Positions 639 to 7,784 of a stretch of 7,917 nt of DNA are shown piece after piece; within the stretch, counting starts at the first letter, position 1; every line of letters starts with the position of its first letter. The DNA is from a virus (lineage: Duplodnaviria > Heunggongvirae > Uroviricota > Caudoviricetes): IMG/VR virus record IMGVR_UViG_2548876948_000002, one strand, 5' to 3'. The position numbers and the translations under genes are program-made. The notes beneath the pieces were generated by a model. The model had not been told where the DNA came from. It worked only from the letters and a program-made list of their open reading frames with translations, and ran no database searches.

Positions 639-5559
<4,921 letters not shown>

Positions 5560-5568
5560 GGGATGTTT

Positions 5569-5901
5569 ATGACGAGCAAAGAAACCTTTACCCATTACCA
5601 GCCGCTGGGCAACAGTGACCCGGCACATACGGCAACCGCGCCCGGCGGATTGAGTGCGAAAGCGCCTGCAATGACCCCGCTGATGCCGGACACCTCCACC
5701 CGTAAGCTGGTTGCGTGGGATGGCACCACCGACGGTGCTGCCGTTGGCATTCTGGCGGTTGATGCTGACCAGACCAGCACCACGCTGACGTTCTACAAGT
5801 CCGGCACGTTCCGTTATGAGGATGTGCTCTGGCCGGAGGCTGCCAGCGACGAGACGAAAAAACGGACCGCGTTTGCCGGAACGGCAATCAGCATCGTTTA
5901 A
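5569..5901 (+). CDS. D: Head decoration protein gpD
   Basis: 110-aa product [27 protein letters not shown] ... AGTAISIV, ending at TAA 5899-5901. An AAGGGA Shine-Dalgarno-like motif sits at 5558-5563. The ATG at 5563 (MFM...) is too close to that motif, so 5569 is preferred. Confidence 0.9.
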
Positions 5902-5918
5902 CTTTACCCTTCATCACT

Positions 5919-5943
5919 AAAGGCCGCCTGTGCGGCTTTTTTT
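5919..5943 (+). terminator. Intrinsic-terminator-like hairpin in the D-E intergenic region
   Basis: GCCGC (5923-5927), loop CTGT, GCGGC (5932-5936), followed by a run of seven T (5937-5943). It is flanked upstream by AAAG, which could extend the stem with A-U pairs. Confidence 0.5.
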
Positions 5944-5956
5944 ACGGGATTTTTTT

Positions 5957-6982
5957 ATGTCGATGTACACAACCGCCCAGCTGCTGGCGGCAAATGAGCA
6001 GAAATTTAAGTTTGATCCGCTGTTTCTGCGTCTCTTTTTCCGTGAGAGCTATCCCTTCACTACGGAGAAAGTCTATCTCTCACAAATTCCGGGACTGGTA
6101 AACATGGCGCTGTACGTTTCGCCGATTGTTTCCGGTGAGGTTATCCGTTCCCGTGGCGGCTCCACCTCTGAATTTACGCCGGGATATGTCAAACCCAAGC
6201 ATGAAGTGAATCCGCAGATGACCCTGCGTCGCCTGCCGGATGAAGATCCGCAGAATCTGGCGGACCCGGCTTACCGCCGCCGTCGCATCATCCTGCAGAA
6301 CATGCGTGACGAAGAGCTGGCCATTGCTCAGGTCGAAGAGATGCAGGCAGTTTCTGCCGTGCTCAAGGGCAAATACACCATGACCGGTGAAGCCTTCGAT
6401 CCGGTTGAGGTGGATATGGGCCGCAGTGCGGCGAACAACATCACGCAGTCCGGCGGCACGGAGTGGAGCAAGCGTGACAAGTCCACGTATGACCCGACCG
6501 ACGATATCGAAGCCTACGCGCTGAACGCCAGCGGCGTGGTGAATATCATCGTGTTTGATCCGAAAGGCTGGGCGCTGTTCCGTTCCTTCAAAGCCGTCAG
6601 GGAGAAGCTGGATACCCGTCGCGGCTCTCATTCCGAGCTGGAGACAGCGGTGAAAGACCTGGGTAAAGCGGTGTCCTATAAGGGGATGTATGGCGATGTG
6701 GCCATCGTCGTGTATTCCGGACAGTACGTGGAAAACGGCGTCAAAAAGAACTTCCTGCCGGACAACACGATGGTACTGGGGAACACTCAGGCACGCGGTC
6801 TGCGCACCTATGGCTGCATTCAGGATGCGGACGCATTGAGTGAGGGTATTAATGCGTCTCCCCGTTATCCGAAAAACTGGAAGACATCCGGCGATCCGGC
6901 GCGAGAGTTCACCATGATTCAGTCAGCACCGCTGATGCTGCTGGCTGATCCTGATGATTTCGTGTCCGTTCAACTGGCGTAA
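5957..6982 (+). CDS. E: Major capsid protein gpE (HK97-fold)
   Basis: 341-aa ORF MSMYTTAQLLAANEQKFKFDPLFLRLFFRESYPFTTEKVYLSQIPGLVNMALYVSPIVSGE ... FVSVQLA, matching lambda gpE in length and sequence. The track's upstream GTG at 5930 lies inside the terminator hairpin and is rejected. Confidence 0.95.
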   Translation: MSMYTTAQLLAANEQKFKFDPLFLRLFFRESYPFTTEKVYLSQIPGLVNMALYVSPIVSGEVIRSRGGSTSEFTPGYVKPKHEVNPQMTLRRLPDEDPQNLADPAYRRRRIILQNMRDEELAIAQVEEMQAVSAVLKGKYTMTGEAFDPVEVDMGRSAANNITQSGGTEWSKRDKSTYDPTDDIEAYALNASGVVNIIVFDPKGWALFRSFKAVREKLDTRRGSHSELETAVKDLGKAVSYKGMYGDVAIVVYSGQYVENGVKKNFLPDNTMVLGNTQARGLRTYGCIQDADALSEGINASPRYPKNWKTSGDPAREFTMIQSAPLMLLADPDDFVSVQLA

Positions 6983-6984
6983 TC

Positions 6985-7010
6985 ATGGCCCTTCGGGGCC
7001 ATTTTCTCTC
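6985..7010 (+). promoter_or_regulatory. Stable stem-loop with TTCG tetraloop, then T-rich tract, in the E-FI intergenic region
   Basis: ATGGCCC (6985-6991), TTCG (6992-6995), GGGCCAT (6996-7002): a perfect 7-bp stem with a UUCG-type tetraloop, followed by TTTTCTCTC. It sits 3 nt after the E stop and 22 nt before the FI start. Confidence 0.45.
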
Positions 7011-7023
7011 TGTGGAGGAGTCC

Positions 7024-7419
7024 ATGACGAAAGATGAACTGATTGCCCGTCTCCGGTCGCTGGGTGAGCAACTGAACCGTGATGTCAGCCTGACGGGGAC
7101 GAAAGAAGAACTGGCACTCCGTGTGGCAGAGCTGGAAGAGGAGCTTGATGACACGGATGACGCTGCCGGTCAGGACACATCTGTCAGCCGGGAAAATGTG
7201 CTGACCGGGCATGAAAATGAGGTGGTATCAGCGCAGCCGGATACCGTGACTGATACGGCTGATCTGGTCACGGTTGTGGCACTGGTGACGCTGCATACCG
7301 ATGCACTTCACGCCACGCGGGATGAGGCTGTGGCATTTGTGCTGCCGGGAACGGCGTTCCGTGTCTCTGCCGGTGTGGCAGCTGAAATGACAGAGCGCGG
7401 CCTGGCCAGAATGCAATAA
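7024..7419 (+). CDS. FI: DNA-packaging accessory protein gpFI
   Basis: ATG at 7024 preceded by Shine-Dalgarno GGAGGAG at 7014-7020. The product MTKDELIARLRSLGEQLNRDVSLTGTKEELALRVAEL ... MTERGLARMQ is 131 aa; lambda gpFI is 132 aa from memory. The track's start at 6985 is inside the hairpin stem and is rejected. Confidence 0.9.
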   Translation: MTKDELIARLRSLGEQLNRDVSLTGTKEELALRVAELEEELDDTDDAAGQDTSVSRENVLTGHENEVVSAQPDTVTDTADLVTVVALVTLHTDALHATRDEAVAFVLPGTAFRVSAGVAAEMTERGLARMQ

Positions 7420-7430
7420 CGGGAGGCGCT

Positions 7431-7784
7431 GTGGCTGATTTCGATAACCTGTTCGATGCTGCCATTGCCCGCGCCGATGAAACGATACGCGGGTACATGG
7501 GAACGTCAGCCACCATGACATCCGGTGAGCAGTCCGGCGCAGTAATACGTGGTGTTTTTGATGACCCTGAAAATATCAGCTATGCCGGACAGGGCGTGCG
7601 CGTTGAAGGCTCCAGCCCGTCCCTGTTTGTCCGGACTGATGATGTGCGGCAACTGCGGCGTGGAGACACGCTGACCATCGGTGAGGAAAACTTCTGGATA
7701 GACCGGGTTTCGCCGGATGATGGTGGAAGCTGTCATCTCTGGCTTGGGCGGGGCGTATCGCCTGCCGTTAACCGTCGCCGCTGA
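7431..7784 (+). CDS. FII: Head completion / head-tail connector protein gpFII
   Basis: GTG start at 7431 with GGGAGG at 7421-7426. The 117-aa product (M)ADFDNLFDAAIARADETIRGYMGTSATMTSGEQSG ... PAVNRRR matches lambda gpFII length. Confidence 0.9.
   Translation: MADFDNLFDAAIARADETIRGYMGTSATMTSGEQSGAVIRGVFDDPENISYAGQGVRVEGSSPSLFVRTDDVRQLRRGDTLTIGEENFWIDRVSPDDGGSCHLWLGRGVSPAVNRRR

Follow-up and report, generated by a model that had tools for sequence, protein, structure and literature searches.

The major capsid gene E of this lambda-type phage is followed by a 7-bp stem-loop, counterparts of which occupy the same place in every homologous spacer compared, and which is under selection as an RNA structure of the + strand. 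As preferred reading, to which we give a probability of roughly 40%, we propose a terminator-type hairpin that is overridden by Q and would shield the 3' end of the E-containing mRNA, while terminating only polymerase that lacks Q. The stem-loop as such is neither new nor surprising, as it is already known and annotated as terminator-like in relatives.

The window, i.e. the entire stretch of 7,917 nt that was analysed, shares 97-98% nucleotide identity with phage lambda (NC_001416), and Pfam matches together with this identity place it at the left end of a lambda-type genome. The junction between E and FI is 93-97.5% identical to many lambda-like phages, and stem plus loop of the E-FI hairpin are identical to lambda 7163-7180. 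The genes and elements referred to below are the following, the genes being assigned by Pfam matches and lambda identity:

93-638: Nu1
613-2538: A
2535-4259: W fused to B
up to 5559: C/Nu3
5563-5901: D
5919..5943, + strand: sister hairpin between D and E, AAAGGCCGC-CTGT-GCGGCTTT followed by a T-run; -12.2 kcal/mol
5957..6982, + strand: gene E, major capsid protein, with start codon ATG at 5957 and stop codon TAA at 6980-6982; Pfam Phage_cap_E, E = 3.5e-71; equals lambda E 6135-7160
6985..7002, + strand: E-FI hairpin with 5' arm ATGGCCC (6985-6991), loop TTCG (6992-6995) and 3' arm GGGCCAT (6996-7002)
7003..7011, + strand: tract TTTCTCTCT, rich in U and C, that separates the hairpin from the FI Shine-Dalgarno sequence
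7014-7020, + strand: FI Shine-Dalgarno sequence GGAGGAG
7012..7025, + strand: weak second hairpin GUGGA-GGAG-UCCAU, present in MFE and centroid structures
7024..7419, + strand: gene FI, DNA packaging chaperone; Pfam Packaging_FI, E = 3.6e-52; lambda FI is 7202-7600
7431-7784: FII

The spacer separating E from FI comprises 41 nt, and the hairpin begins 2 nt past the E stop codon. RNAfold returned the 7-bp hairpin in the MFE as well as in the centroid structures, in a 56-nt and in a 201-nt context, and the hairpin alone has a folding energy of -12.3 kcal/mol. The closing pair is C-G, which gives C6991-UUCG-G6996 the form of the extra-stable cUUCGg tetraloop. Sequence and RNAfold thus bear out the earlier note, which had described a real hairpin in the E-FI spacer with a perfect 7-bp stem closed by TTCG. 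The G+C-rich stem and the short loop are of the kind found in intrinsic terminators, whose stems measure ~5-12 bp. A consensus scan likewise called the hairpin terminator-like (7 pairs, 5 of them G-C, a loop of 4 and the tail TTTCTCTCTG); this simple scan misses lambda's bona fide tR' and also the D-E hairpin of the window, and its calls were given little weight. No Rfam 15 family reached its gathering score over the E-FI hairpin; the sole overlapping match was PhotoRC-I at chance level (14.2 bits versus a gathering score of 45, E = 7.3).

Taken singly, the E-FI hairpin is not beyond chance. The window contains 5 perfect hairpins with a stem of at least 7 bp versus 3.6 +/- 2.4 in dinucleotide shuffles, the 56-nt fold has a z-score of -0.70, and, when the 41-nt spacer was shuffled, 8 of 40 sequences folded equally well. 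As such single-sequence statistics failed to separate the hairpin from chance, we relied on comparative evidence. To this end, 80 close relatives were taken from IMG/VR, and 71 further loci came from one-genome-per-species bacterial contigs, found via alignment of diverse E proteins; the spacers of N15, phi80, HK225, phage 21 and lambda were added. A stable hairpin between the capsid stop codon and the FI Shine-Dalgarno sequence was present in 25 of 25 distinct homologous spacers, whose E proteins are 56-99% identical, with energies ranging from -8 to -24 kcal/mol. In two of these loci (L119 and L122) an ATG lies inside the hairpin loop, and hairpins were counted on the full 51-nt spacer. The best hairpin averaged -14.0 kcal/mol over the 25 spacers as compared to -7.9 kcal/mol in shuffled spacers and -6.7 kcal/mol in E coding segments of the same length. 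Of 1000 shuffles, only 48 reached the observed values; for the coding segments the figure was 33 of 1000. Position and conservation together exceed chance.

The pattern of substitutions indicates what is being kept. Among the 80 close relatives, 1 of the 14 stem columns is variable versus 12 of the 27 columns in the remainder of the spacer (one-sided Fisher p = 0.015), and of the third codon positions towards the end of E, 22 of 60 vary. The sole variable stem column carries an A-to-G exchange at 6985 (12 loci), giving a G·U pair. In spacers of the lambda/N15/phi80 group there is essentially no change in the five inner pairs, GGCCC/GGGCC, and the two outer pairs covary, the first being A-U, G·U or G-C and the second U-A or C-G; a covariation score as high was obtained with 1 of 500 shuffles. 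Four loci of the phage 21 group exhibit GCCTCCG in place of GCCCCCG, again yielding a G·U pair. Because the G·U variants would be A·C mismatches on the opposite strand, the object of selection is the RNA of the + strand.

These observations already disfavour the view that the hairpin is a functionless by-product of mosaic evolution, i.e. a relic operon end, a recombination joint or a DNA palindrome such as an IS target. DNA similarity between the lambda-type and the phi80/HK225-type genomes does stop exactly at the E stop codon, and in phage PhiR70_1 an IS4 element resides within the hairpin, flanked by a 12-bp duplication of GGCCCTTCGGGG. However, purifying selection acts on the stem columns, the compensatory and wobble changes point specifically to RNA of the + strand, and distant relatives have independently come to carry different hairpins at this position, all of which makes lack of function highly improbable. 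PhiR70_1 (host E. coli C) is deposited as a complete genome, and for this reason an intact hairpin is probably not essential.

The stems of distant relatives, comprising phage 21, Providencia, Serratia, Buttiauxella and Aeromonadaceae-type loci, are unrelated in sequence. Examples are:

Phage 21: stem-loop CGGGGGC-GAAAT-GCCCCCG
E. coli prophage: stem CGGGAGC/GCTCCCG
Providencia: stem-loop CGGCGGG-GAAA-CCCGCCG
Serratia: stem-loop AGGGGC-TACG-GCCCCT
Trabulsiella guamensis: stem of 11 bp

Selection thus favours a stem at the E-FI position and not a particular sequence. The loop is not conserved either. Close relatives also have TTAG (8 loci) or TTCT (1 locus), and distant relatives have TGTT, TTTC, ATTC, TGTC, TCCG, TGCG, GTCC, GAAA, GCAA or TACG as well as loops of 5-7 nt, though extra-stable UNCG and GNRA tetraloops are frequent among relatives. 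The weight that the earlier note had placed on UUCG could therefore not be upheld, as the tetraloop itself is not what selection maintains. Specific recognition of the invariant GGCCC/GGGCC core was considered and rejected as well: the same 14-mer, GGCCCTTCGGGGCC, is found amid unrelated flanks in at least 120 unrelated viral contigs, and in half of these contigs at least 5 T are present in the next 8 nt. The element has the appearance of a generic terminator hairpin rather than of a specific recognition site.

The sequence following the stem is less uniform. A T-rich tract had been reported there, and a U/C-rich stretch is indeed present at 7003-7011, but it is interrupted in this phage and a U-tract is absent in several relatives. 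The tail UUUCUCUCU has 5 U among its first 8 nt, of which 3 are contiguous (4 with the closing U), whereas ~7-9 uninterrupted nt are the norm for intrinsic terminators, and 3 of the 9 columns of the tract vary among close relatives. In a hand count of the 25 spacers, the number of T among the 8 nt that follow the core stem ranged from 1 to 7, with at least 4 in 17 of 25 relatives and at least 6 in 11 of 25. The T-richest tails (7 of 8; L104, L112, L150) and the poorest ones (1-2 of 8; L124, L129, L132) mark the extremes. The tract is an imperfect terminator U-tract, which may at the same time contribute to the region where FI translation is initiated.

With a U-rich tail behind a G+C-rich stem, the hairpin has the form of an intrinsic terminator and might accordingly be a leaky one, at which some polymerases, even when loaded with Q, stop at ~7005-7011, leaving less mRNA for FI and the genes downstream than for E. 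Such transcriptional attenuation would set stoichiometry, like T7 T-phi after gene 10. The T counts in most tails, the occurrence of the 14-nt core ahead of T-rich tails in unrelated viral contigs and the label that annotators gave to the N15 and HK225 counterparts, i.e. rho-independent terminator, are in agreement with this reading, and partial termination is also among the roles suggested by the authors of the phage L genome paper. On the other hand, the U-tract of this phage contains an interruption and that of L124, L129 and L132 is missing, and all tail genes, for which substantial expression is needed, are located downstream. In addition, late transcription proceeds from pR' and is carried out by Q-loaded polymerase, in which the Q nozzle prevents formation of terminator hairpins; this polymerase is topologically locked on and processive over distances of tens of thousands of nt (PMC9388147). 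Resistance to processive antitermination is reported only for unusually long stems, according to the passage of PMC11512511 that cites Miguel-Arribas 2023, and the stem considered here has 7 bp.

The hairpin between D and E bears on the same question. Its GCCGC/GCGGC core is lengthened by additional A-U pairs, with a T7 run behind them, so that a canonical terminator-like element with a better U-tract directly precedes E, the gene needing the highest expression. A stable hairpin upstream of E was found in 24 of the 25 spacers, the exception being L126 with a weak structure of -6.5 kcal/mol. With hairpins both upstream and downstream, E is bracketed by two such elements. Since the stronger terminator-like hairpin with its T7 run precedes E, elements of this type are presumably read through in the late operon. 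The proposal of the earlier note that the hairpin lowers downstream FI expression is thus unlikely to describe its main effect if termination is the means: the nozzle of the Q-loaded polymerase prevents terminator hairpins, and the better terminator-like hairpin is followed by E, which is nevertheless the most abundant head protein. For these reasons we regard leaky termination as an unlikely explanation, albeit one to be kept in mind.

Alternatively, the hairpin could be a safeguard terminator that matters only for polymerase without Q, arising from spurious or read-in transcription in lysogens or during early infection, and that has no effect on late mRNA. Its terminator-like form would suit this role, which has been proposed explicitly for intra-operon terminators of P22-like phages in the phage L paper, and an analogous insulating terminator is described for Tn916 (PMC11658703). 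Similar hairpins are also found along the late operon of lambda: each of its spacers of 40-65 nt (D-E, E-FI, I-J, J-lom and lom-orf401) contains a terminator-like hairpin, while the remaining late genes abut or overlap. No such hairpin follows V, the major tail gene, in lambda; the V-G spacer measures 15 nt. Yet there seems to be little to insulate against, as a consensus scan detected 0 promoter-like sites in the window versus 3.5 expected. Moreover, those hairpins of relatives that lack a U-tract cannot terminate, and the bracketing of E specifically, in nearly every relative, would be left unexplained. We consider a pure safeguard function decidedly unlikely.

The hairpin also affects where FI is thought to begin. 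The list of open reading frames includes 6985..7419, which starts with the ATG within the stem. The true FI start is 7024, because positions 1-131 of the Packaging_FI model align with residues 2-128 of the protein starting at 7024, because 7024 corresponds to lambda FI 7202, and because base 6985 is G (GTG) in 12 of the 80 close relatives. The Pfam alignment, the match to lambda and the G in relatives confirm that the ORF track mistook the in-stem ATG for the start of FI, as the earlier note had stated. A genuine N-terminal extension of FI from 6985 was rejected: there is no Shine-Dalgarno sequence upstream, the 12 close relatives have GTG instead, and in other relatives the equivalent frame has no start codon or contains an in-frame stop codon. 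The FI start is placed too early, at an in-stem ATG or GTG, by ORF callers and in the GenBank record of phi80 at least. The practical value of recognizing the stem-loop, which accounts for the 41-nt gap between E and FI, therefore lies in annotation.

We further considered that the hairpin serves translation of FI, either by shielding the FI ribosome-binding site from the many ribosomes that finish at the E stop codon, whose re-initiation or scanning it would block, or, in concert with pyrimidines or anti-SD segments beside it, as part of a structure that limits FI initiation. The distance from the end of the hairpin to the FI ATG is fairly constant with 17-24 nt in 15 of 25 spacers; in 6 other spacers, figures of 8-10 nt refer to an extended outer helix in which the Shine-Dalgarno region takes part, and are not comparable. 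The strong GGAGGAG is partly buried in the weak second hairpin, which covers the Shine-Dalgarno sequence and extends two bases into the FI start codon, and each of the five substitutions that the 80 relatives show in this segment (7012..7025) either affects the loop or is compatible with wobble pairing, so that pairing is kept. It is possible that this second hairpin dampens FI translation; in N15-type spacers it is not conserved in its lambda-type form. In spacers of the N15/phi80 type, a post-stop UCC(A) can pair with UGGA(G) of FI, forming a helix around the hairpin (L001, L102, L103, L111). Translation initiation is also reported to control the ratios of lambda late-gene products (Sampson et al. 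1988). However, these extra helices are short (3-5 bp), group-specific and devoid of clear covariation, a like hairpin is present after D, where downstream E needs maximal translation, and the core is a generic terminator hairpin that occurs in unrelated contexts. A role primarily in FI translation thus appears quite improbable to us.

PNPase and RNase II are hindered by stable stem-loops at RNA 3' ends, and the E-FI hairpin, a stable and conserved stem-loop directly downstream of a cistron, has the structure expected of such a decay barrier. According to our preferred reading, the element would be an ordinary stem-loop of the intrinsic-terminator type, one of a set that fills nearly all sizeable spacers of lambdoid late operons. 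During lytic growth, the hairpin could not form in the extended exit channel of the Q-loaded RNA polymerase, resulting in read-through, and would fold later in the free mRNA. Following a downstream cut of the long late transcript, the folded hairpin would stop 3'-to-5' exonucleases. As a consequence, the E segment, and likewise D with its own hairpin, would outlive the segment comprising FI and beyond, and this stability effect would add to the translational control behind the high E:FI ratio. For polymerase without Q, the same element would be a modest terminator.

Protection of the 3' end of the E transcript is plausible and fits all results. The analysis establishes the structure, + strand polarity, selection and position of the element; read-through, the decay-barrier effect and its size are our inference. 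The variable U-tract, absent in L124, L129 and L132, fits a decay barrier, because the barrier needs the hairpin and not the U-tract. Other observations count against it. In lambda, a hairpin of this kind is missing after V, another gene with abundant expression; most relatives (17 of 25) have a U-rich tract, for which a pure decay barrier would have no need; and the IS4 element sits inside the hairpin of the complete PhiR70_1 genome. Furthermore, Sampson et al. 1988 (PNAS 85:5439) reportedly attributed the ratios of lambda late-gene expression mainly to translation initiation, an account that would leave little for a stability effect to explain.

A more speculative idea starts from the Q-dependent terminators of Yin et al. 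2022, who proposed a hypothetical class consisting of a hairpin, a spacer and a U-tract of 7-9 nt. If the hairpins bracketing E belonged to this class, the Q nozzle would delay folding by a few nt, so that a displaced or extended U/C-rich tract instead of an adjacent U-run would be in register, and a fraction of the Q-loaded polymerases would specifically halt after E. Some tails are loosely compatible with such an arrangement, namely TG-TTTC in lambda, TG-TTTTT in lambda-type variants and TGTC-TTTTTT in phage 21. In the window, a U-run of 7-9 nt was not found downstream of the E-FI hairpin, and we rate this idea as extremely improbable. In a milder version, the two hairpins may delimit a discrete, unusually stable monocistronic E mRNA from the 26-kb late transcript.

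Homologous elements are on record in two relatives. In N15 (stem_loop 7053-7073) and HK225 (terminator 7009-7028), the hairpin is located at the same place, after the capsid stop codon and before the FI Shine-Dalgarno sequence, and has the same GGCCC/GGGCC core with G-C as outer pair. As predictions, the N15 record lists the stem-loops on either side of the capsid gene as 'putative rho-indep. transcription terminator' and the HK225 record lists both hairpins flanking the capsid gene as 'rho-independent terminator'. The earlier note had missed this annotation. The tail of the lambda hairpin, TGTTTCTCT, is two bases apart from TTTCTCTCT in the window. N15 and phi80 differ by the loops ATTC and TGTC, by 13-14 extra nt between stop codon and stem, and by a shorter U-tract. 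In the accessible literature, we found neither an experimental test of the lambda E-FI element nor a transcriptome, whether of 3' ends or of long reads, that covers the lambda late operon; searches for in vitro transcription results at the element and for transcript ends, half-lives or coverage at the E/FI boundary likewise returned nothing. An Hfq-binding sRNA derived from the 3' end of the E transcript was also considered as a candidate and rejected, as none is named at E-FI among the lambda sRNAs in the main text of the RIL-seq study. The sRNAs named there are PreS/LPR1, located between ea10 and ral, as well as LPR2 and 6S, which lie close together in the late operon; Table S2, as described there, covers E. 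coli genes only.

The E-FI hairpin represents one case of a general habit of tailed phages, i.e. terminator-like hairpins placed after the major capsid gene in antiterminated late operons. The comparative pattern, in which the hairpin is constant, the stem sequence free, the U-tract optional and E bracketed, eases the design of a clean experimental test.

In its proposed action, the element resembles intercistronic hairpins of bacterial operons. The malE-malF REP sequence (Newbury et al. 1987) and the hairpins of the Rhodobacter puf operon (Klug and colleagues) reportedly cause differential stability of mRNA segments, and the likeness is that of a hairpin 3' of a highly expressed cistron that blocks 3' exonucleases. 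The E-FI element is not a REP (no Rfam match), it is a much smaller single hairpin, and its effect is putative.

In its position, it is reminiscent of T-phi of phage T7, a stem-loop terminator after gene 10, which encodes the major capsid protein; T-phi acts on T7 RNA polymerase and ends a large share of the transcripts, and the downstream genes are expressed by read-through. In both cases, a stem-loop of terminator form is found right after the most-needed structural gene within a long late unit. Here, however, transcription is carried out by host polymerase with Q, which suppresses hairpin-dependent termination, and the sequences are unrelated. Another parallel is provided by the P22-like phage L, in whose genome paper a terminator was predicted after the procapsid module, inside a late operon with a single promoter. 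Its authors stated that the roles of intra-operon terminators are not known and suggested partial termination or blocking of non-antiterminated transcription. Both phages thus have a terminator-like hairpin after the capsid assembly genes of an antiterminated late operon; the phage L element, also a prediction only, belongs to an unrelated capsid gene family and has an unrelated sequence. Finally, tR', the terminator of 6S RNA in lambda, is an intrinsic terminator of the very same late unit that is read through by Q-loaded polymerase. It differs in having a long composite stem and the tract ATTTTTTAT, and it stops unmodified polymerase efficiently, as compared to the 7-bp stem and the interrupted U-tract of the E-FI hairpin.

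The hairpin between E and FI (6985-7002 in the window) is interrupted in Escherichia phage PhiR70_1 (PV340577.1) by the insertion sequence IS4, which encodes the transposase InsG. The insertion is flanked by a target duplication of 12 bp, GGCCCTTCGGGG, and was located in the fetched PhiR70_1 locus L155 as follows:

L155 59-75 and 1496-1520, IS4 insertion in the E-FI hairpin, with IS4 oriented as the late genes

As a result of the insertion, the truncated stem stays with E, while a 5-bp hairpin is re-formed ahead of FI. The record, whose host is E. coli C, was deposited as a "complete genome", and PhiR70_1 represents a natural mutant in which the role of the E-FI hairpin can be tested.

Two further hairpins of the window lie close to the starts of E and FI:

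5919-5943, canonical terminator-like hairpin followed by a T7 run, in the D-E spacer directly upstream of E
7012-7025, weak second hairpin GUGGA-GGAG-UCCAU at the start of FI

Of the 25 relatives examined, 24 have a stable hairpin at the D-E position, and the Shine-Dalgarno sequence of E in the window is weak (ACGGGA) and flanked by U-runs. The hairpin at 5919-5943 was absent from the output of the simple terminator scan of the window. The same scan also failed to report the bona fide terminator tR' of lambda (positions 225-285 of locus L238, i.e. lambda 44500-44900), a long composite stem CCCGAAAC...GTTTCGGG followed by ATTTTTTAT, and its negatives are therefore untrustworthy. The weak hairpin at 7012-7025 sequesters the FI start codon at its first two bases and, in part, the strong Shine-Dalgarno sequence preceding it. 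Among the 80 close relatives, five substitutions were detected within this hairpin, each of which falls in the loop or is compatible with wobble pairing. In N15-type spacers, UCC(A) immediately following the E stop codon is able to pair instead with UGGA(G) of FI.

The start of FI is annotated differently in the phi80 record (locus L002, JX871397.1; 1793-2245), where the homologue begins at a GTG that forms the hairpin's first base pair; the ATG chosen in N15 and HK225 lies 36 nt further downstream. This GTG is a probable mis-call, of the same kind as that made by the ORF track in the window.

Comparison with lambda revealed that 80 nt (lambda about 2804-2873) are missing from the window, apparently through deletion between 10-nt direct repeats (junction 2696-2705). 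Consequently, W has lost its 3' end and B its 5' end, and the two are fused into a single ORF of 574 aa (2535-4259), in which Pfam detects gpW at residues 1-60 and the portal domain at 73-441. Since the 80 nt are present in every top match listed, in the 12 phage records as well as in the 8 complete genomes of E. coli, a defective prophage or an odd assembly is the probable source of the window.

Genome-contig matches also included short, low-coverage contigs with 94-99% identity to lambda E in dozens of unrelated bacterial assemblies, among them Pseudoxanthomonas, Bradyrhizobium, Paenibacillus, Akkermansia, Enterococcus and Corynebacterium (fetched loci L086-L101, L105, L118, L123, L125, L131, L134-L142, L144-L146, L148-L149 and L151-L153). 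These almost certainly reflect contamination of sequencing libraries with lambda DNA, or its use as spike-in.

In lambda itself, sizeable spacers coincide with hairpins across the late operon, and terminator-like hairpins with T-runs are located at the following positions of the lambda locus L154:

15453-15497, I-J spacer
18920-18935, J-lom spacer
19598-19641, lom-orf401 spacer
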